From the NCBI GenBank assembly GCA_965243345.1, contig CBDEUR010000003.1, positions 3,987,607 through 4,051,606 of the forward strand: a DNA stretch of 64,000 bases. The letters are read 5' to 3'. This document shows positions 4,607 to 61,102 of this stretch, piece after piece (the stretch's first letter is position 1; every line of letters begins with the position of its first letter). Source of the stretch: Thalassobaculaceae bacterium (lineage in GTDB: Bacteria; Pseudomonadota; Alphaproteobacteria; Thalassobaculales; Thalassobaculaceae). The notes under the pieces were generated by a model. The model was not told the DNA's origin and did not search any database. It was given only the letters and a program-made list of their open reading frames with translations. The translations under genes and the position numbers were made by a program.

Positions 4607-6031
4607 TCAGCCGGGAACCCCGGCCTTGAGCAGGACAGGCCGCCAGGAAGAGCGGTCGTCAAGGCCGCGCCTGCGGCGCTGCTCGATCCATGTTGCGAGG
4701 CTGAAGTCGGGATAGAGCCTGAGCAGCATGTCGATCCGCGCGCGGATTGCGTCGCTATCGCCCAGTTCCGCGAGCGCCAGGATCAGCATCAGGTGCGGTT
4801 CCGGATCGGCCGGACGCGTGGCCAGCACCCGGTCGAGATCCGCGCGCGCCCGCTCCGGCCGGCCGGCGAGAAGGCGCAGTTCCGCGAGCCGAAGGTCCAT
4901 TGCCACCGGGTGGCGCGGATGCAGCCGCAGGGCGCGGGCGAGCGCCGCCTCCGCCTCCGCGTGTCGCTCCAGTCCGGCCATCGTGTTGGCGAGATCGAAC
5001 TGTGCGCGAAACGAGTTGGGGCCAAGTCGTGCCGCGCGAGTGCGCCATTCGAGCACGTCGTCGTGCCGGCCGGCGAGTTTCAGCAGGTCGGCCCTGATCA
5101 CGGCCGCGGCAGGGTCTGCGGGATCGCGCGCGAGCGCCCGGTCGGCTGCTGCGAGTCCGGCATTGACCAGGCCGGCGCGGTCGGTGGTGCCGCCGAAGCC
5201 GATCCAGTCGCGCCGCGCTGCCTCGAACCAGATGCGTGCCGCCTCCACCGGGATGGCGCTCCAGCCGGGATCCGCCGCCTCCGCCCCGGCAAGCTGTTCC
5301 AGGCTTGACGCCATGCTTTCACGGTCGTCCGGCACCCGGTACCAGGTCGCTTCGGCGAGCGCGACCCAGGCAGCATGGTTCCCCGGACCCGGTGGCGGCC
5401 GGGTATCCTCGTCGCCATCAAGTTCGGAAACCAGGTCGTTCACCAGCTCCCGCGGCAGCTCATGAAGCCCCGCCTGCCCGAGTACAACGGTCCGGGCCCA
5501 GTCGGCCTCGCCGGTGAACGCGTCGATGATCTGCACGTGCGCCCGCATGCCGGTCTTGGACTGGGCCAGAATCGTTGTCACCAGGTTTGCCACGCCGAGT
5601 GCCTCCGCCGTGACCTTGATGCGGAACTGTCCGCCGCGAAGCCGACCGGCGGTCTCCGGTGCGATCACGAACAGGTCCGGGTTGCGGGCAAGCGTTGCCG
5701 TCAGCACGGCCGTGAGCTGGCGTGCGTCGATCACATCGGACGAACGGGTGCTGGCGGGGGCGACCGGCAGCACCACCACGGACGGGCGCTCGGGCAGCGG
5801 CAGCTGCAATGCGGCCCGGTCGGCCCGGTCCGGCGGGTGGTCGACGAAGTCCCGGTACCAGGTCCAGGTGATGGCTGCACCCAGCAACACGACGCCGATT
5901 CCGCTCAACAGGGTCAGCAGCGGCCAGCGGCGTTGCCAGCCGGTACGCGGCTGCTCGGGGGGCGGCGGTTCCCAGATCGCCATCAGTCCTGCCGGTTTCG
6001 ATCGCGGAGCATCGCCACCCCGCTCAGTCAA
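4607..6031 (-). CDS. membrane-anchored TPR-repeat protein
   Basis: One N-terminal TM helix (WPLLTLLSGIGVVLLGAAITW), then a periplasmic-type domain and Ala/Leu/Arg-rich TPR-like repeats. An alternative start is at 5983. Confidence 0.6.
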   Translation of the reverse strand: MTERGGDAPRSKPAGLMAIWEPPPPEQPRTGWQRRWPLLTLLSGIGVVLLGAAITWTWYRDFVDHPPDRADRAALQLPLPERPSVVVLPVAPASTRSSDVIDARQLTAVLTATLARNPDLFVIAPETAGRLRGGQFRIKVTAEALGVANLVTTILAQSKTGMRAHVQIIDAFTGEADWARTVVLGQAGLHELPRELVNDLVSELDGDEDTRPPPGPGNHAAWVALAEATWYRVPDDRESMASSLEQLAGAEAADPGWSAIPVEAARIWFEAARRDWIGFGGTTDRAGLVNAGLAAADRALARDPADPAAAVIRADLLKLAGRHDDVLEWRTRAARLGPNSFRAQFDLANTMAGLERHAEAEAALARALRLHPRHPVAMDLRLAELRLLAGRPERARADLDRVLATRPADPEPHLMLILALAELGDSDAIRARIDMLLRLYPDFSLATWIEQRRRRGLDDRSSWRPVLLKAGVPG

Positions 6032-7256
6032 TCAGCGACTGGTAGACCAGGACCCTGAGCTCCCGGCGGATCGGGTAGCTCGACGACGGGATCAGCTGGG
6101 TCAGGAACACCACGGTCAGTTCCTCCGCCGGGTCGATCCAGAATGCGGTACTCGCCATCCCGCCCCATGCGAACTCGCCGGGCGAGCCGGGTATCTGGGC
6201 GTGCACCGGATCGAGCAGCACCGCGCCGCCCAGCCCGAAGCCGATGCCGTTCATCGGCATCTCGCTGAAGACCGACTGTCCCATCGAGGCCATGTCACCG
6301 GGCAGGTGGTTCATCTGCATGAACTCGACCGTCTTGCGCCCCAGGATCCGGGCGTCGTCGAGCGTGCCGCCGCGGCGGAGCATCTCGAGGAAGCGGAGGT
6401 AGTCGGCCATCGACGAGACCAGTCCGCCGCCGCCGGAATACAGGCTGACCGGTTCGCGAAACCGGCTGTCCCCGGCGTCCTCCACCAGCTTGAGCGGGTC
6501 CTCCGCGGCCAGGGTGTAGAGCGAGCAGAACCGGTCCAGCCGGTCGTCGGGAACACCGAAGAAGGTGTCCGGCATGCCGAGGGGCTCAAAGATCCGTTCC
6601 CGGAACACCTGGTCCAGCGGGCGCCCGGCGACCACCTCGACGACCCGGCCGAGCACGTCGGTCGACACCCCGTAGTTCCAGCGGGTTCCGGGATGAAAGC
6701 ACAGCGGCACGGCGGCCAGTCGTGCGACCACGCTGGCCAGGCACTCGTCGGTCCCGGAGAAGTCGGCGCGGGCGCGCCGCATCGCCCGTCCGACCGGGGT
6801 CGGATCGAACAGCCCGTAGGTCAGGCCCGAGGTGTGGGTCATCAGCTGGCGCACCGTGACCGGTGTCTCGGCATCGACCAGTTCCATGTTCTCGAACGGT
6901 CCGCCGACGTAGACCTTGCGTTCGGCGAGTTCGGGGAGGATTTCCTCGACCGGCGCATCGAGCATGAGGCGGCCTTCCTCGAACAGCGTCATGGCTGCCA
7001 CCGTGGTCACCGGCTTGGTCATGGAATAGATGCGGTACAAGCCGTCCTGGAGCGCCGGCAGGCGGCGGGCGATGTCACGCTGGCCGTAGAGATCGGCATG
7101 GGCAAGCCTGCCGCGGCGCAGCACCGCGACGGCGGCGAACGGCAGCTTGCCCGCGTCGACGTAGCTGCGCATCCACGGGCCGATGCGGGCGAGCCGGTTC
7201 CTGCACAGGCCGAGTTCCTCGGGTCTGGCAACGGGATCGAGACTGTCGAGGGGCAT
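6024..7256 (-). CDS. serine hydrolase, beta-lactamase/esterase family
   Basis: S-x-x-K motif (YSMTKP) plus class-C beta-lactamase-like flanks. I chose the start at ATG 7256 (MPLDSL...); the ORF stays open to 7301. Confidence 0.8.
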   Translation of the reverse strand: MPLDSLDPVARPEELGLCRNRLARIGPWMRSYVDAGKLPFAAVAVLRRGRLAHADLYGQRDIARRLPALQDGLYRIYSMTKPVTTVAAMTLFEEGRLMLDAPVEEILPELAERKVYVGGPFENMELVDAETPVTVRQLMTHTSGLTYGLFDPTPVGRAMRRARADFSGTDECLASVVARLAAVPLCFHPGTRWNYGVSTDVLGRVVEVVAGRPLDQVFRERIFEPLGMPDTFFGVPDDRLDRFCSLYTLAAEDPLKLVEDAGDSRFREPVSLYSGGGGLVSSMADYLRFLEMLRRGGTLDDARILGRKTVEFMQMNHLPGDMASMGQSVFSEMPMNGIGFGLGGAVLLDPVHAQIPGSPGEFAWGGMASTAFWIDPAEELTVVFLTQLIPSSSYPIRRELRVLVYQSLID

Positions 7257-7331
7257 TGCCGCATCTCCTGGTGAGCGCATGGACCGGCAGTGCCGGGGCA
7301 CTTGCCTTCCGGTTCCGTCCTATGCCACAGC

Positions 7332-7892
7332 ATGCCGATGCGAGGCTATTTCGGAATCGGTGTCGAGGGTATCAGCAAGCCGATGAACTTCGGCGCGGTG
7401 ATGCGAACCGCGCACGCATTCGGCGCCAGTTTCGCGTTCACCGTCGGCGACGCCCTGCCGGCGCGCGAGATCGGACAGTCCGATACCTCGCACGCGGCCG
7501 GCAGCCTGCCGTTCTACGCGTTCCGGCAGGCCTGCGACCTCCTGCTGCCGCGCGGCTGCGCCCTGGTGGGAGTGGAAATCACCGAAGACGCGATCGAACT
7601 GCCGAGTTTCCGCCACCCGCGCCGCGCCGCGTACGTGCTCGGTCCGGAACGCGGCGCACTGTCGCGGGCCATGCTCGCACGCTGCGACCACGTGGTCCGC
7701 ATCCCGCTCGGCTTCGCGATCAACGTCGGGCTTGCCGGAGCCCTGGTCATGTACGACAGGATGATCACGCTGGGGCGGTTCGCGCCGCGGCCGGTCTCCG
7801 CCGGCGGTCCGGTCGAACCGCTGACGGCACCCGAGTTCGGACCGCCGGCCTGGGTGCGCAAGCAGGCTCGCTCCGGGGCCGTGGAGACATGA
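7332..7892 (+). CDS. SpoU/TrmH-family RNA 2'-O-methyltransferase
   Basis: MPMRGYFGIGVEGISKPMNFGAVMRTAHAFGA...LGPERGALS...VRIP is a SpoU methylase signature. Internal ATG of the 7290 ORF. Confidence 0.8.
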   Translation: MPMRGYFGIGVEGISKPMNFGAVMRTAHAFGASFAFTVGDALPAREIGQSDTSHAAGSLPFYAFRQACDLLLPRGCALVGVEITEDAIELPSFRHPRRAAYVLGPERGALSRAMLARCDHVVRIPLGFAINVGLAGALVMYDRMITLGRFAPRPVSAGGPVEPLTAPEFGPPAWVRKQARSGAVET

Positions 7893-8686
7893 ACCCGTTC
7901 GCCGAACTCTTCGCCGCCGAACGAGGAGCGGAGCGGATTGCGCGGCGGCTGGCGCGAAGCGGGCTCTGTTCGCGGCGCGACGCCGAGCGATGGATCGCGG
8001 CCGGACGGGTCAGGGTCGACGGCCGAACGCTCGATCATCCGGCGGTGACGGTCGATGCGTCGAGCCGCATCCTCGTCGACGGCAAGCCGGTTCCCCCGAT
8101 CGAGCGGCCGCGGCTGTGGCGTTACCACAAGCCCGCCGGCCGCATCACCAGCACCAGCGATCCGCAGGGGCGCCGCACCGTCTTTGCCGACCTTCCGGCG
8201 GACCTTCCCCGGGTGATGACGGTCGGCCGGCTCGACCTCGCGTCGGAAGGCCTGCTGCTGCTGACCAATGACGGCGGCCTGGCGCGGTTGCTCGAACTTC
8301 CCTCCACCGGCTGGGTGCGTCGCTACCGGGTCAGGGTGCACGGCCGGCCGGAGCCTGCGCGGCTTGACGCGATCGCGCGCGGGGTCACCATCGAGGGCAT
8401 CACCTACGGACCGGCCGACATCAGCCTCGATCACCAGGGACCGAGCAACGCCTGGCTCACCGTCGGACTGCGCGAGGGCAGGAACCGGGAGGTGCGCCGG
8501 CTGCTGGAGCATGCCGACCTTGCCGTGAACAGGCTGATCCGGATCTCCTACGGTCCGTTCCAGCTGGGGACCCTGCCGGCGGCGGCGGTGAGCGAGGTCA
8601 GGCAGCGGGTCCTTCGCGAACAGCTCGGTGCGGGCAGGCCGCAGGACCGGGATGCGGATCGTCGCCGGAAGCAGGCGCGGCGCTAG
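7889..8686 (+). CDS. pseudouridine synthase, RsuA/RluB family
   Basis: N-terminal S4 domain (RIARRLARSGLCSRRDAERWI), the catalytic VGRLD motif and a basic C-terminal tail. The ATG overlaps the upstream TGA. Confidence 0.85.
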   Translation: MNPFAELFAAERGAERIARRLARSGLCSRRDAERWIAAGRVRVDGRTLDHPAVTVDASSRILVDGKPVPPIERPRLWRYHKPAGRITSTSDPQGRRTVFADLPADLPRVMTVGRLDLASEGLLLLTNDGGLARLLELPSTGWVRRYRVRVHGRPEPARLDAIARGVTIEGITYGPADISLDHQGPSNAWLTVGLREGRNREVRRLLEHADLAVNRLIRISYGPFQLGTLPAAAVSEVRQRVLREQLGAGRPQDRDADRRRKQARR

Positions 8687-9248
8687 ACTGGCGTCGCTTG
8701 CCGGCCGCGGGACGCGGCCGACGGCGTCGCGAACCCGTACGGCGGCGTTCGACCTGCTGGACGGCGGACGGTTCGGCCAGCCCTATTCCGGGCGTCTCGT
8801 GGTGGACGGCTTTGCCGGGACCGGCGCCCTCGGCCTCGAGGCGCTCTCGCGCGGTGCCGCCCATGCGGTGTTCATCGAATCCGAACCGGCGGCGCGGCGC
8901 GTGCTTGCGCGCAACATCCGCAGCCTGGGGTTCGAGGAGCAGGCCACTGTCATTGCAGCGGATGCGACCCGGCTTGGCACCACGGCCGCCGGCGTTGCCG
9001 GGCTGGTGTTGCTCGATCCACCCTACGGCAGCGGCCTTGCAACACCCTGTCTCGCAGCACTGCGCCGCTGCGGCTGGATCGGTGCGGACACCGTCGTCGT
9101 GATCGAGACCGCGCGCCGACACCCGGTTGCATTGCCCGACTGGCTCGAACTGGTCGATGACCGGGCGCACGGAGCCGCCCGGCTGCAGGTCGCCCGGCCG
9201 CTACCCCAGGCTTGCCAGCCAGTCCTCGATCAGCCGGCGCGCGATTGA
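8652..9248 (+). CDS. rsmD: 16S rRNA (guanine966-N2)-methyltransferase
   Basis: MRIVAGSRRGARL start, SAM-binding FAGTGALGLEALSRGA, and the LLDPPY motif. Confidence 0.8.
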   Translation: MRIVAGSRRGARLASLAGRGTRPTASRTRTAAFDLLDGGRFGQPYSGRLVVDGFAGTGALGLEALSRGAAHAVFIESEPAARRVLARNIRSLGFEEQATVIAADATRLGTTAAGVAGLVLLDPPYGSGLATPCLAALRRCGWIGADTVVVIETARRHPVALPDWLELVDDRAHGAARLQVARPLPQACQPVLDQPARD

Positions 9249-25140: not shown

Positions 25141-25542
25141 TGGAGACCCCATCGTGGCGGGAGTGGGAGCCGAAATGACAGGGACCAATAGTCCAAAATG
25201 GGCCGAGTACCGAAAGAAGAATGGTCCTGACTCACCATACCGCTTGTCGCGGACAGGAGAACCTCTCCACCTGTTCCAATACCCGCATGCTCTTGCGCCG
25301 TCAGTGCCGTCCCGCAGACAGGATCAGTGCACTGTTCGAATCCCTGTCAGCAAAGTCCCGGCAAACCATCTCTCCAGAGGGGGCGGCAGCCAAATTCGTC
25401 CCGCATTTCAACCGGGTGACCAGGACAGGCCACGTCTACGCCCTGGCAGAATCACTATTGTCACCGGTACGTGGCGTGTTGTTTGACAGGATGTGGGTAT
25501 ATGCACTCTCCACGAGAGACCATATATGCCTGCGTGCTTTTG

Positions 25543-25725
25543 TCAGTCACGCATCAGACTGATTTCGTACCATGGCACAGCCATGAGAACGACCGATATC
25601 ACGGCAAACACACCAGCAGCCAACACCTCGCCGTTGTTGAAATGCTCCACAGCGAACACTGCGTTAGTGATCGCGCCACAGGCGAACAGGGCGAGCATGA
25701 AGAAGTGAAAGAGTATGGGGAACAT
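25543..25725 (-). CDS. small two-TM membrane protein (60 aa), speculative
   Basis: MFPILFHFFMLALFACGAITNAVFAV...LAAGVFAVISVVLMAVPW gives two clear hydrophobic helices. Internal ATG of the 102-aa ORF, with GGAAGA upstream. Confidence 0.3.
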   Translation of the reverse strand: MFPILFHFFMLALFACGAITNAVFAVEHFNNGEVLAAGVFAVISVVLMAVPWYEISLMRD

Positions 25726-25753
25726 TGTTCTTCCACTCTTGCAAGAGTTTTCA

Positions 25754-25915
25754 TCAAATGGAATTGAGCAGATGGGTGGCGAGCCAGCGTGTGGATCGCA
25801 TGCCCAAATGGATATCGTGCTCGTCGGCAGCTGCCTGCATGACACCTGCAACCACCTGCTGTGGCGTTGCGAACCGAGGTTGCCGTGCGCCCGGATGCAC
25901 GTATCTGTTGCTCAT
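25754..25915 (-). CDS. small hypothetical protein (53 aa), speculative
   Basis: MSNRYVHPGARQPRF...; GAGGA lies upstream. It is in tandem with the next small ORF inside the reduced-GC tract. No homology recognised. Confidence 0.2.
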   Translation of the reverse strand: MSNRYVHPGARQPRFATPQQVVAGVMQAAADEHDIHLGMRSTRWLATHLLNSI

Positions 25916-57026: not shown

Positions 57027-58010
57027 CTACCGCCTGCGCCGCATGCGCTTGGAGAGGTGCCGGGCGGAGGTGCTGCTCATGATGAACTCAGCAACCAGAC
57101 CCACCATGTCCTGGTCCTCCACCGGATAGCGGGTGTCGAAAAGCCGCGGCATGCCCGCGACCTGATCCTCGCCGAACTTGACCTGTGCCATCCGCCACAG
57201 CATCACCCGCTCGGCGGCCGCTTCTTCCATCAGCGCCTTGGCATATCCCTCGCGCTGTCCCTGTTCCCTGCCCTGCCGGTGAACCGGCCGCATCAGTTCG
57301 TCGGCGCGCCGGATGTCCTCCAGGGTGGGTTCCGCCTCGCCGAGGCTGCGTGTCATGTTGAACTCGAAACCGTGCTCCCGGCCGAGCAGGTTTCCCCATT
57401 CGAGGATCGCCTCCACCGCCCGGGCGTGCTCCGGTTCCGGAAGTCGCGACACGCAACCGGCCGGCAGGTTGAGGCCGATCCGGTCCGGCCGAACGGAGGT
57501 CTGTACCGCGATGATGTGGGAGACCACCGAGTCCGGATCGATATCCGTGGTGTCGAGGGCGCGGATGTCGAGGACACGCTGCTCCGCGGCGCGGTGCTGC
57601 GCGGTTGCCGGGGGCCACGGCCTGTCGCCGTCGTAGATCACCAGCTGCACCAGTCGCGGAACCGGCCCGCCTGCATCCGACAGCGCCGCGTGGCAGGCGG
57701 CGAGCCGGTCACTTGCTCCGGTATCGATCTCCGTGTGGATCTCGACCAGGAACAGGACCGTCTGGTCGGGACCATTGCCCCGCATTCCGACGCGCCAGAA
57801 CGCCGAGTGCGGGCAGGCCGGTCCCGGCATGTCTTCCGCGGCCACCGGGCGCAGGCGCTGCCAGTCCAGCCGTTCGCGCAGGTCGGTCCCGTCGTCGCAC
57901 ACGAGGCCCCGGGCATAGCCGGTCACCAGGTGCGTGAAGATGACCGGGTGTTCGAACAGCGCGCGATAGGCGTGCCAGTCGGGGCTGTCGTGCATCGGCA
58001 TCACTGTCAT
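57027..58010 (-). CDS. Rpn-family recombination-promoting nuclease / putative PD-(D/E)XK transposase with a DUF4351-like C-terminus
   Basis: N-terminal HDSPDWHAYRALFEHPVIFTHLV, the core strand LFLVEIHTE, and a C-terminal GREQGQREGYAKAL...MLWRMAQVKFGE. Possible starts are at 58010, 58001 and 57995. Confidence 0.6.
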   Translation of the reverse strand: MTVMPMHDSPDWHAYRALFEHPVIFTHLVTGYARGLVCDDGTDLRERLDWQRLRPVAAEDMPGPACPHSAFWRVGMRGNGPDQTVLFLVEIHTEIDTGASDRLAACHAALSDAGGPVPRLVQLVIYDGDRPWPPATAQHRAAEQRVLDIRALDTTDIDPDSVVSHIIAVQTSVRPDRIGLNLPAGCVSRLPEPEHARAVEAILEWGNLLGREHGFEFNMTRSLGEAEPTLEDIRRADELMRPVHRQGREQGQREGYAKALMEEAAAERVMLWRMAQVKFGEDQVAGMPRLFDTRYPVEDQDMVGLVAEFIMSSTSARHLSKRMRRRR

Positions 58011-58225
58011 CCGGACGGTGCGGAAGGAGGCGGAACATAAAGCGAACCCGGACTGCGGGTCAACAGGCCGGCCACCGCCGTGGTGAAACTTGCACGCCGC
58101 GTTCGGCGAAAGTGTCCCAACGGGCATCCGCGGGACAAAAGCACCCGTTCCGCGCAGGGGCCGCACCTGTCCCTAGCGTTCTAGTCCCGTACTTGCGATG
58201 CGCAAAGTGGAAAAATCCAGCTCGA

Positions 58226-58687
58226 TCAGTCCAGGCACTTCTTTCCTGCAGGGATCTCGCTCCAGCGATCAAGATAGAACGCAAACCTCTCGGCAAACCC
58301 ATCCCCGAATGGATGTACATCTGCCTTTGCAATTGTCTTGGAGAGGTTCAAAAAGTCAATGACGTGAAATTCTTCTATCCCGCAGAACTTGGCTTTTTCT
58401 TCATCATTGAGAGCACACGGCACTATCATGATCAAATCAATGTCGGCGTCACTCCATGCCTCGGCGACTTCGGTTTTATACAATTGTCCTTTCTTTCCCT
58501 TTAGTCCAGGTCGTGGGGCTCTCATATTCATTTTGCGGAAGCCGCACCTGTCGCAAAGGCTTATGCATCCGATTTCGTGAAGTTTCCATATCAAGTGTGC
58601 GTACTTTCGCGATTCCTTACTCGCACGTGCAACTTGAAGAACTCCACAGAGTATCTCGCATATTTTTTTATTCTTTGCACATTTCAT
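58226..58687 (-). CDS. Cys-rich hypothetical protein (153 aa), in the -1 frame relative to the upstream ORF; possibly made only as a frameshift fusion
   Basis: It lies in the AT-rich islet and has 8 Cys (C3, C10, C14, C41, C45, C48 and two more). There is no SD before its ATG, and its frame is open for 16 codons upstream. Confidence 0.5.
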   Translation of the reverse strand: MKCAKNKKICEILCGVLQVARASKESRKYAHLIWKLHEIGCISLCDRCGFRKMNMRAPRPGLKGKKGQLYKTEVAEAWSDADIDLIMIVPCALNDEEKAKFCGIEEFHVIDFLNLSKTIAKADVHPFGDGFAERFAFYLDRWSEIPAGKKCLD

Positions 58688-59004
58688 CGTCTTAATTTGC
58701 TCTTTTTTATCGATTTCTTGTCCGTCTTTAGTTCAAGCAAGCACAAGTGTTTCTTGCTTTTCTTTTCAAAAAACACGGCAAAGTCAACATTTGTGGATTG
58801 GTCATTTCCCGAAGGATTAAACAATTTCTTGTGCAAAGGAAATTCGGGAATCACCTTACAATTTTCGGGACGCACCCCAAACTTCGCTCCGACAACAGTC
58901 GGTAACAGCATGCCGAATAAAACGTCAACCCGTCTCTCTAGTTGGTATGCGGGGAGATGCCGCCAGTCGTCAAGCTGACCTAAAATCCTCGATAGTATGT
59001 CCAT
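58684..59004 (-). CDS. mini PD-(D/E)XK nuclease-like protein (106 aa)
   Basis: Strong SD AGGAG (59012-59016) lies 7 nt before the ATG. Motif set: E23 (YQLERR), D74 (VDFAVFF), E91-L-K93 (CLLELK). AT-rich codon usage, foreign to this genome. Confidence 0.6.
   Translation of the reverse strand: MDILSRILGQLDDWRHLPAYQLERRVDVLFGMLLPTVVGAKFGVRPENCKVIPEFPLHKKLFNPSGNDQSTNVDFAVFFEKKSKKHLCLLELKTDKKSIKKSKLRR
58702..58708 (-). other. A_AAA_AAG -1 slippery heptamer in the zero frame of the 106-aa ORF
   Basis: The coding strand reads ATA AAA AAG AGC. A -1 slip continues as GAG CAA ATT AAG ACG ATG..., which is the frame of the 153-aa ORF. Confidence 0.55.
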
Positions 59005-59243
59005 TTTCTGGCTCCTACATTTCTTGTCACTATTCGAGAACCAGTGGTCCGATGGCTACACTGATCTCCGCAGCAAGCCAGCGCAAGTCCCTCTTGTCCG
59101 GGCAATCACCGACCACGGCCGGAAAGCCACCAGTCATCCGGAACAGACACCGTTCAGGGGGCAGTTACGGCGCCTTTGCCTGCCGACAAACTGTCCCGCA
59201 TCTGAACAACCCGGCCGGAACACCACGAGCTGCTGCTACCCGT

Positions 59244-60272
59244 TCATCGACCGTTTGCCAATTCTGGGGCAGCGTCGGGCAGTCCCGGACGCCTTGCGGA
59301 TCCGTCATCGCGGCTGCCGGGAAACCGGGCCCCGAACCGGGTGATGATCTCTCCGGCCGCGGCACTGGCAATCTCTCCGCAGCGGCCGAGCCGTTCACCG
59401 TTGACCAGTCCGAACAGGAAGCCGGCCGCGTATATGTCCCCGGCTCCGGTGGAATCGACCACGGGACCGGCGGGCAGCGCAGGGACCTGGTGGCGTTCAC
59501 CCGGTCCGATCACTACCGATCCGTGTGCGCCCCTGGTCACCGCCAGGAGATCGCAGTCGCCGACGACGGCCGCGATCGCGTTCTCGAGGTCATCAACCCG
59601 GCAGAGCGCGCGAAGTTCGTCCTCGTTGCAGAACAGGATGTCGACGTGGTCCGCGAGGAGGCGGAGAATGTCGTCCCGGTGCCGCTCGACGCAGTATGGG
59701 TCCGACAGCGTCAACGCGACACGGGTACCGGCCTCCCTTGCCACCGCCGCGGCGGCCTTCAGGGCCTGGCGTCCGCCCGGAGGGTCCCAGAGGTAGCCCT
59801 CCAGGTAGATGACGGCGCTGTCGGCAATGAGAACCGGGTCAATGTCTGCGGCATCAAGTTCGGTACACGCGCCGAGGTAGGTGTTCATGGACCGCTGGGC
59901 ATCGGGCGTCACCAGGACCATGCAGCAGGCCGAATCCAGTCCGGCCGTTGACGGCGGCGTCTCGTACCGGACCCCGACCCGGGCGATGTCGGCACGGAAC
60001 ACGCTGCCCAGGTGATCGTTGCGGACCTTGCCGACGAACGCCGCGCGTCCGCCCATGGCGGCGAGGCCGGTGGCGGTATTGGCCGCCGACCCTCCGGACA
60101 CCTCGAGCCCCGGTCCCAGTAGCCGGTAGAGTTCCCGGGCGCGGTCGGCATCGATGAGCTGCATGGCTCCCTTGGTGATCGAATGCTCCTGAAGGAATGC
60201 ATCGTCGACCCGCGAGACCACGTCGACGATCGCGTTGCCGATGCAGGTGACATCGATGGTGCGTGTCCGCAT
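59244..60272 (-). CDS. PfkB-family carbohydrate kinase (adenosine kinase-like)
   Basis: CIGNAIVDV..., GGSAANTA, and the C-terminal TGAGDIYAAGFLFG. I chose the start at MRTRTIDV; the ORF stays open to 60512. Confidence 0.8.
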   Translation of the reverse strand: MRTRTIDVTCIGNAIVDVVSRVDDAFLQEHSITKGAMQLIDADRARELYRLLGPGLEVSGGSAANTATGLAAMGGRAAFVGKVRNDHLGSVFRADIARVGVRYETPPSTAGLDSACCMVLVTPDAQRSMNTYLGACTELDAADIDPVLIADSAVIYLEGYLWDPPGGRQALKAAAAVAREAGTRVALTLSDPYCVERHRDDILRLLADHVDILFCNEDELRALCRVDDLENAIAAVVGDCDLLAVTRGAHGSVVIGPGERHQVPALPAGPVVDSTGAGDIYAAGFLFGLVNGERLGRCGEIASAAAGEIITRFGARFPGSRDDGSARRPGLPDAAPELANGR

Positions 60273-60418
60273 GGGTCTCCCCGGGTATCTCAGCCGCGAG
60301 AGGCGGCCGCTCCAGCGGCGTTTATAGACCAACTTGGCGGCGTGCGGGCGCCGGGGCTTGCCTTGTCGGGTGCGAGGCCCGACAACAGGGGTGCGTGGTC
60401 TCGGGATGGAGTGATGAC

Positions 60419-61102
60419 ATGGTCGAATCCCTGCGACGGGCGTTCGCGCAGCTGCCGGACCCGGTGCTGCGCCGGGCCCTGGTCGGGAGTGTCCTCGGTG
60501 CGTGTCTTGCAACCGTGCTCGCGGTCGTTCTCAGCTGGTGGGTGGTTGCAAGCTTCGGCATGTTCGGAAACGGGATCGCCGATACCGTCGTGGCCGCGGG
60601 TGGGGCGGTCCTGGTGCTGATCGGAGCGCTGATCTTCTTTCCCTCGACCGTCATGGTCGTGGCCGGGTTCTTCCTTGATTCGGTTGCCGACGCCGTCGAT
60701 GCCCGGTACTGGCCGAACGCCGCGCCCCCGCGCCAGCGGGGACTGCGCGAGGTCATGGTTGCCGGACTGTCGCTGCTGGCCATTTCGCTGACGATGAACC
60801 TGATCCTCCTGCCGGTCTATGCCTTCGCGCTGTTCATTCCGGGCCTGGGCCTGGTGCTGTTCTATTGCCTGAACGGTTACCTGTTCGGGCGCGAGTTCTT
60901 CGATGCAGTCGCAACCCGCAGCCTCGAACCGGCTGACGCCCGCGCGATGCGACGGCGTTACCGGGGCCGGATCCTGCTTGCCGGAGTGATCATCACGGTG
61001 CTCACCACCGTTCCGATTCTCAACCTCGCGGCACCGATCCTTGCAACCGCGTTCATGACCAACCTGTTTCGGGGACTGGATATCTCTGCACGGACAGAGT
61101 AG
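60419..61102 (+). CDS. EI24/CysZ-like membrane protein
   Basis: 227 aa from MVESLRRAF, with four or more TM helices. The block LNGYLFGREFFD matches what I remember of this family. Confidence 0.55.
   Translation: MVESLRRAFAQLPDPVLRRALVGSVLGACLATVLAVVLSWWVVASFGMFGNGIADTVVAAGGAVLVLIGALIFFPSTVMVVAGFFLDSVADAVDARYWPNAAPPRQRGLREVMVAGLSLLAISLTMNLILLPVYAFALFIPGLGLVLFYCLNGYLFGREFFDAVATRSLEPADARAMRRRYRGRILLAGVIITVLTTVPILNLAAPILATAFMTNLFRGLDISARTE

Follow-up and report, generated by a model that had tools for sequence, protein, structure and literature searches.

In dnaX and in insertion sequences (ISs) of the IS3 family (IS911, IS3 and IS150), the heptamer A_AAA_AAG, placed in the X_XXY_YYZ register, lets ribosomes move into the -1 frame and make a longer fusion protein, with the shift falling between two functional modules. 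In the insA/insB pair of IS1, the slippery sequence is A6C; a short upstream open reading frame (ORF) has an A-run close to its end and is followed by an overlapping ORF in the -1 frame. A similar picture arises when a homopolymer indel splits a gene. Such split genes, or young pseudogenes, also comprise colinear ORFs in frames 0 and -1, with the change of frame at a mononucleotide run between invariant residues, and they are lineage-specific. A homopolymer indel is again the lesion in 'saviour-indel' frameshifting, as in the G-run mutants of herpesvirus thymidine kinase, where slippage on the run could restore some product (PMC5009743). Here we analyse two overlapping ORFs on the minus strand, at positions 58226 to 59004 of a 64,000-nucleotide stretch of DNA, hereafter the window, from a Thalassobaculaceae bacterium (contig CBDEUR010000003.1, positions 3,987,607 to 4,051,606). 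A reading of the nucleotides without database searches (the sequence-only reading) had proposed that an A_AAA_AAG heptamer links these ORFs in an IS1/IS3/dnaX-style recoding layout, and had also considered that a homopolymer indel might have divided one gene. Our comparisons with homologous proteins and loci argue for the latter. They point to a single interrupted gene for a putative nuclease, with the slippery site probably a by-product of the lesion.

With dnaX and the IS3-family elements, the locus shares the heptamer, its register and a -1 frame that extends the product into a longer fusion. In contrast to them, it has no internal Shine-Dalgarno (SD) sequence, no stimulatory hairpin or pseudoknot (pseudoknots were not explicitly modelled), no conservation of the layout, no transposase, no terminal inverted repeats and nothing akin to the tau/gamma logic, and the shift occurs inside one domain. 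The likeness to IS1 is limited in the same way, as the protein is not a transposase, the islet that carries the gene has neither inverted repeats nor a target duplication, and the relatives are single ORFs. Scans of the two ORFs and of their fusion against Pfam and NCBIfam detected no transposase family. Splitting by a homopolymer indel is an already known, ordinary kind of event. Unlike the usual pseudogene of this kind, the window gene shows no other decay yet, and its lesion has by accident left a perfect A_AAA_AAG, which may be slightly leaky. As regards the saviour-indel cases, selection for the indel, or the existence of any product, is only a possibility in the window gene.

The two ORFs and the slippery heptamer

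ORF1 (106 aa; 58684..59004, minus strand) is preceded by an AGGAG SD sequence (59012..59016, minus strand) with a 7-nt spacer to its ATG. It corresponds to residues 1-101 of the interrupted gene, followed by the five out-of-frame residues SKLRR, and it bears the conserved motif residues E54, D74, E91 and K93. ORF2 (153 aa; 58226..58687, minus strand) is the C-terminal part, in frame -1. The whole gene (58226..59004, minus strand) is thus read in frame 0 to 58702 and in frame -1 from 58702 on.

We re-derived the register of the heptamer (58702..58708, minus strand), and most of the sequence-only description proved accurate. On the minus strand, ORF1 ends with ...TCG ATA AAA AAG AGC AAA TTA AGA CGA TGA. 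The heptamer AAAAAAG, at 58708-58702, lies in the X_XXY_YYZ register five codons before the stop, its first A being the third base of ATA. A -1 slip at this position leads into the frame of ORF2 and gives a fusion of 259 aa, composed of residues 1-101, EQIKT and the 153 residues of ORF2. The ATG of ORF2 is indeed devoid of an SD sequence, and it overlaps the stop codon of ORF1 as ATGA. The described TGA (58735-58733) closes the -1 frame on its upstream side, and from 58732 down to 58226 this frame remains open; however, the open codons before the ATG number 15 (58732-58688) and not 16.

The heptamer occurs once in the window, against 0.66 occurrences expected, and 45 of 100 shuffled sequences contained at least one copy. 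By itself, it is no more than chance would yield. What departs from chance, as judged from the comparisons below, is the colinearity of the two ORFs with the two halves of one conserved protein.

Colinearity with single-frame homologues

A search of 5.8 billion proteins with the fusion as the query returned 946 matches, nearly all of which are single ORFs of 250-270 aa. The best of them are single ORFs of 259-269 aa that cover 100% of the query with 56-62% identity. We aligned the fusion with 37 other sequences, and this alignment of 38 (A1) has no gap at the junction, where the window reads LLELKTDKKSIKKEQIKTMKCAK and P0002 reads LVELKTDQKSIKVEQIETMGQAR. The EQIKT peptide before Met107 is genuine family sequence, and the apparent start codon of ORF2 codes for this Met107, a nearly invariant internal residue of the family. 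The ATGA overlap results from Met107 preceding an A-initial codon. On the strength of the alignment, the two ORFs are one ordinary gene of ~259 residues.

A1 also locates the change of frame. Ser98, which is invariant, is coded in frame 0, and the invariant Gln103 and nearly invariant Met107 are coded in frame -1. Because Ser98 and Gln103 are in different frames, the change is confined to 11 nt. The homologues always have four codons (12 nt) between these two residues; the window has 11 nt there, ATAAAAAAGAG. Conservation of Ile99 (ATA) therefore places the loss within the 8 nt that hold the A-run, AAAAAGAG, most simply as a shortening from A7 to A6 of the run at 58708-58703. When one A is added back to the run, the translation becomes IKKE, which fits the I-K-x-E/x pattern of the family (SIKVEQ in P0002 and SIKKEQ in P0051). 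In a blastn comparison with the orthologous gene of L067, a syntenic contig described below, the 1-nt gap of the window is set at 58708.

The removal of one A from ATA AAA AAA GAG leaves ATA AAA AAG AGC, and hence the 'canonical' register is an automatic by-product of the loss. For the same reason, a -1 slip on the heptamer rebuilds exactly the ancestral protein (SIKKEQ). Gap-free colinearity and the 1-nt deficit at the A-run thus support the alternative that the sequence-only reading had mentioned, namely a homopolymer indel that split one gene.

Layout of the site in homologous DNA

As protein databases favour intact ORFs, we surveyed the layout at the DNA level, independently of gene calling. 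The survey covered 63 loci, 21 from contigs of a one-genome-per-species collection and 42 from metagenomes. In tblastn comparisons with the fusion, 53 of them pass residues 95-107 in a single frame, and a pair of matches in two frames at the site was found in none of the 63. The remaining 10 loci do not span the site; these copies are distant or decayed, with breaks or truncations at other places. The sequence-only reading had supposed that a simple mutation or a sequencing error would be indicated by homologues with single in-frame ORFs and A7 or A5 at the site. Single ORFs are what we found, but the codons at the site are unrelated to such runs. In L007, near position 1600, the sequence TCC ATA GAA AAA AAG CAA contains an in-register A_AAA_AAG at the equivalent Lys-Lys pair and reads on in frame, the motif appearing to arise simply from Lys codons.

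Some short matches were considered as split homologues and were rejected. The proteins P0018, P0021, P0048, P0049, P0084, P0106, P0112 and P0113 are truncated at other positions. L051 ends at 106 aa; it is, however, a remnant that has been cut short, and no recognisable sequence follows it. Decay is common in the family as a whole: the loci L021, L051, L054, L061 and L062 and the proteins P0021, P0048, P0084, P0106, P0112 and P0113 have truncations or frameshifts at a variety of other sites. This is in keeping with an accessory or defence gene prone to loss. In L004, a metagenome-assembled genome of the Pseudomonadales, a second short N-terminal fragment (2900-2983; residues 2-29, 57% identity) is found ~2 kb upstream of the full-length copy.

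We also looked for a closer relative that would display the ancestral A-run. Among the 5.8 billion proteins, none exceeds 62% identity over the full length (66% over a partial match), and the species of the window was not recovered among the one-genome-per-species contigs. A scan of viral contigs yielded no relatives and thus no sign that the family is phage-borne.

Predicted fold of the protein

The AlphaFold2 model obtained with A1 is a confident single domain, with a predicted local distance difference test score (pLDDT) of 88.4 and a predicted template modelling score (pTM) of 0.88. It comprises a helix (residues 19-42), three strands (50-58, 70-81 and 84-92), helices between residues 101 and 145, the first of which spans 101-111, and two further strands (188-195 and 213-217). 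The first three strands are encoded before the break, and the helix 101-111 and the strands 188-195 and 213-217 after it. The break at residue 101, eight residues past the ExK motif, therefore cuts inside one predicted domain. ORF1 had been thought to yield a short nuclease core. According to the model, its product is not self-contained, as it is devoid of the helix bearing the invariant Gln103 and of the later strands.

D74 and K93 do not vary in A1, and the conservation of E91, E54 and Q103 is complete or at least 90%. In the model, the catalytic-type residues are placed on two strands (70-81 and 84-92) and on the helix 101-111. E54, D74, E91-x-K93 and Q103 fit a PD-(D/E)xK nuclease core, and the same E...D...ExK...Q pattern on a strand-strand-strand-helix arrangement is found in this superfamily, which includes the C-terminal domain of Shedu SduA, Mrr_cat, VRR-NUC, the N-terminal domain of TnsA and type II restriction endonucleases. 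In contrast with these proteins, the window family has a conserved N-terminal helix motif of its own, WRHLPAYQLERRVD, and a C-terminal half without a named relative. It thus appears to be a widespread, unnamed, PD-(D/E)xK-like family of putative nucleases.

Scans of ORF1, ORF2, the fusion and all 38 aligned members against Pfam, NCBIfam and PADLOC gave nothing above threshold. The matches below threshold were SduA_C (15 bits for a cut-off of 27), TnsA_N, VRR_NUC, Mrr_cat and PDC-M47B of PADLOC. No match was obtained in a profile search of the Protein Data Bank (PDB) sequences. Foldseek matches were weak, with a best E value of 0.14 in the PDB, values of 1.5e-3 or worse in BFVD and low template modelling scores, none of them significant; they are mostly PD-(D/E)xK nucleases, including Cdn1/Card1/Can2, MspJI, PfoI, FokI and BamHI. 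Taken together, the weak matches in sequence and in fold belong almost exclusively to this superfamily.

Apart from the interruption, the window protein is well preserved. In A1, the other 37 sequences are conserved to at least 90% in 63 columns, of which 38 precede the break and 25 follow it. The fusion has the conserved residue in 62 of these 63, and the exception, V90L, is also present in P0001.

Search for frameshift stimulators

The 37 nt that precede the heptamer contain no SD-like motif. The interrupted hairpin described by the sequence-only reading does exist at 58682-58625, starting 19 nt after the heptamer. However, its stability is not above that of shuffled sequences, with a minimum free energy (MFE) of -12.3 kcal/mol, a z-score of +0.26 and 120 of 200 shuffles folding at least as well, and a stimulatory role is not supported. 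We also folded the downstream region with spacers of 0-9 nt and lengths of 30-120 nt. Over the 35 combinations, which did not extend to pseudoknots, no z-score fell below -1.22. The 30-50 nt that directly follow the heptamer are essentially unstructured, their MFE being -1.1 kcal/mol or higher. A search of Rfam, whose families include curated frameshift elements, gave no match at E values up to 10.

High-GC alphaproteobacteria usually have tRNA-Lys(CUU), which is cognate for AAG and lowers slippage on A_AAA_AAG. In Escherichia coli, the bare heptamer causes ~0.3% of shifting and at most ~3.7% in the best 3' context, for a background of ~0.05% (PMC4066793).

The low-GC islet and its counterpart in L067

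The gene is the sole content of a variable low-GC islet (58182..59273, unstranded). The GC content of the islet is 39-59% in 300-nt segments (minimum ~39%; ~39-47% in the core), compared with 67% window-wide, and the islet is the only strongly low-GC part of the window. The only other segment below 55% GC (25401-25800, minimum 0.52) is a far milder dip.

The flanks of the islet are syntenic with those of L067, the contig of the best match, P0001. On both contigs, genes for DapB, DUF2244, Nth, bactofilin, EI24 and PfkB are found on one side of the gene, and a 324-aa ORF and genes for an alpha/beta-hydrolase and an SDR protein on the other. The DNA identity between the contigs is 94.6% in one flank and 94.1% in the other. 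The L067 gene is an intact 259-aa ORF without an A-run, reading TCA ATC AGC GGA AAG CAG at the site. In the interval between pfkB and the 324-aa gene, L067 harbours a 4.2-kb low-GC island (4770-8927) where the window has 58182-59273. The two copies of the gene have 68.7% DNA identity and 60% protein identity, and their similarity reaches ~80 bp beyond the ATG on the upstream side, to 59086, and ends just past the stop codon. This difference between L067 and the window suggests independent acquisition or allelic replacement rather than vertical descent. The site is a variable chromosomal hot spot, at which a close relative has an allele that differs strongly.

Neither IS-like nor att-like repeats were detected at the borders of the islet (58182-59273), that is, no terminal inverted repeats and no flanking direct repeats. 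The larger island of L067 contains further low-GC ORFs, among them two of 142 aa (8169-8594, with a hydrophobic stretch as seen by eye) and 107 aa (7845-8165), both within 7845-8594 on the minus strand, with no counterpart in the window. Next to the islet, the window has a 379-aa ORF (57027-58166, minus strand) devoid of a Pfam match at E values up to 0.001. Its L067 orthologue is called as 324 aa, and the real start is probably the methionine of MPMHD near 58001; three small indels relative to L067 (58149, 58093 and 58084) lie upstream of this start. On the other side, the 422-aa PfkB ORF (59244-60512, minus strand) is over-extended at its 5' end. Its L067 orthologue is called as 336 aa, and the Pfam PfkB match begins at residue 139.

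Gene neighbourhoods in the family

In 18 of 69 fetched loci, a gene of ~500 aa for a DUF2779 protein (PF11074) adjoins the homologue. In two loci, the gene for a NERD/UvrD_C_2 (UvrD-type) helicase ends exactly 52 bp upstream of the homologue, and another family copy sits amid helicase and defence-like genes. This DUF2779/helicase pattern is seen in L064 (836-2431 and 4087-5949), L066 (2591-4285 and 5212-5949), L005, L008, L009, L023, L024, L040 and others. The alphaproteobacterial copies (those of the window, L067, L065/L001 and L002) have neither the DUF2779 nor the helicase partner and are thus orphans. Remnants of NERD helicase, DUF2779 or other neighbour genes were found neither in the window islet nor in the larger island of L067.

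Origin of the interruption

We favour, with some reservation, a real and recent deletion of one A in the A-run of a recently acquired orphan gene, which would make the latter a very young pseudogene and the slippery site a by-product. The conserved columns retained in both halves (62 of 63) speak for a recent lesion. The gene would have arrived recently by horizontal transfer in the 1.1-kb low-GC islet. One A would then have been lost in the lineage of the window, turning ATA AAA AAA GAG into ATA AAA AAG AGC, such that the frame shifts after the ExK motif and translation stops after five junk codons. The deletion itself would have made A_AAA_AAG in register, and neither the heptamer nor the ATGA overlap would be an evolved signal. 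A small fraction of the ribosomes may slip by -1 on the heptamer and make the ancestral protein, which would be incidental leakiness rather than programmed recoding (cf. PMC4066793, PMC5009743). Several points weigh against this reading. A basecalling or assembly error at a homopolymer is possible. Protein identity to this allele did not exceed 62% in any sequence found, and the ancestral A7 is deduced, not observed. The total lack of further decay equally fits an artefact or a tolerated, compensated frameshift; with 62 of 63 conserved columns kept, the lesion must be very recent, or not real, or tolerated. Finally, the heptamer is the best-known bacterial -1 site and is in perfect register.

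The most serious competitor, which we regard as possible though unlikely, is an artefact of assembly or basecalling, in which case the 259-aa ORF is uninterrupted in the organism, with A7, and one A is missing from the consensus only. In its favour, what is lacking is precisely one base of a homopolymer, and the gene is otherwise pristine, with no stops and an intact SD sequence. The AT-rich islet is also atypical for the genome, with A/T runs of at least 6 nt barely represented in the flanks. On the other hand, the 8.5 kb of flanks differ from L067 by four single-base gaps only, all of them intergenic according to the L067 gene calls, with no coding indels. None of the seven flank homopolymer runs of at least 5 nt differs in length, although this control is weak for A/T runs and comprises only those seven. 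Long uninterrupted ORFs occupy the remainder of the window, and an A7 run (58669-58663) and T6 runs in the same gene leave its frame undisturbed. On these grounds, a clean assembly, and with it a genuine deletion, is the more likely. An improbable alternative is a phase-variable switch or a 'saviour indel', whereby slipped-strand mispairing between A7 and A6 turns off a potentially toxic orphan nuclease and rare reversion or a compensatory shift gives a little protein. The lesion does affect a homopolymer in an otherwise intact, nuclease-type gene of a defence-associated family whose usual neighbours (DUF2779 and the NERD-UvrD helicase) are absent here, and compensatory frameshifting at indels is documented (PMC5009743). 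However, a tract is lacking there in all relatives, and the site is therefore not a conserved contingency tract, and the decay of other family members at many positions fits plain pseudogenisation. Contingency tracts usually have at least 8 nt, with length polymorphism and a conserved position, and a tract of 6-7 nt is short for high-frequency phase variation. This explanation is without positive support.

Evolved programmed -1 frameshifting in the manner of dnaX or the IS3 OrfAB proteins, whereby frame 0 would give the 106-aa product and regulated slippage of some ribosomes on A_AAA_AAG the 259-aa protein, seems very improbable to us. It would account for a canonical heptamer in register five codons before a stop, for an open -1 frame that yields a conserved protein, for a downstream ATG without an SD sequence and for the undecayed state of both halves. 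However, the layout is conserved in none of the 63 loci, of which 53 are single-frame at the site, nor in the orthologous, intact L067 locus, and there is no internal SD sequence, no structure beyond chance and no Rfam frameshift element. The break inside a single domain would leave the 106-aa product without the Q103 helix and the later strands, and the islet is not IS-like. The register follows automatically from the deletion of one A from xxA AAA AAA G, tRNA-Lys(CUU) is the usual situation in such alphaproteobacteria, and unstimulated efficiency in E. coli is only ~0.3%, as mentioned above. The recoding layout put forward as the main proposal of the sequence-only reading is therefore not supported. 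We also give very little credence to a newly born recoding site, in which a real A7-to-A6 deletion would have been retained as it throttles a toxic, partner-less nuclease to a sub-percent level by spontaneous -1 slippage. If true, the latter would represent programmed frameshifting at the very beginning of its evolution, with a 'saviour indel' accompanied by compensatory frameshifting.

Implications

An in-register A_AAA_AAG between overlapping ORFs is what is expected from a one-base deletion in an in-frame Lys-Lys A-run, and the register alone is therefore no evidence for recoding. The deciding test is conservation of the layout in homologues, which fails for the window gene. As regards annotation, 58226-59004 should be joined as one frameshifted gene. 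A minor positive outcome is the recognition of a sizeable, unnamed and confidently foldable PD-(D/E)xK-like family, whose members often sit beside DUF2779 or NERD-helicase genes. Together with these neighbours, the family may form an undescribed defence or mobile-element module.

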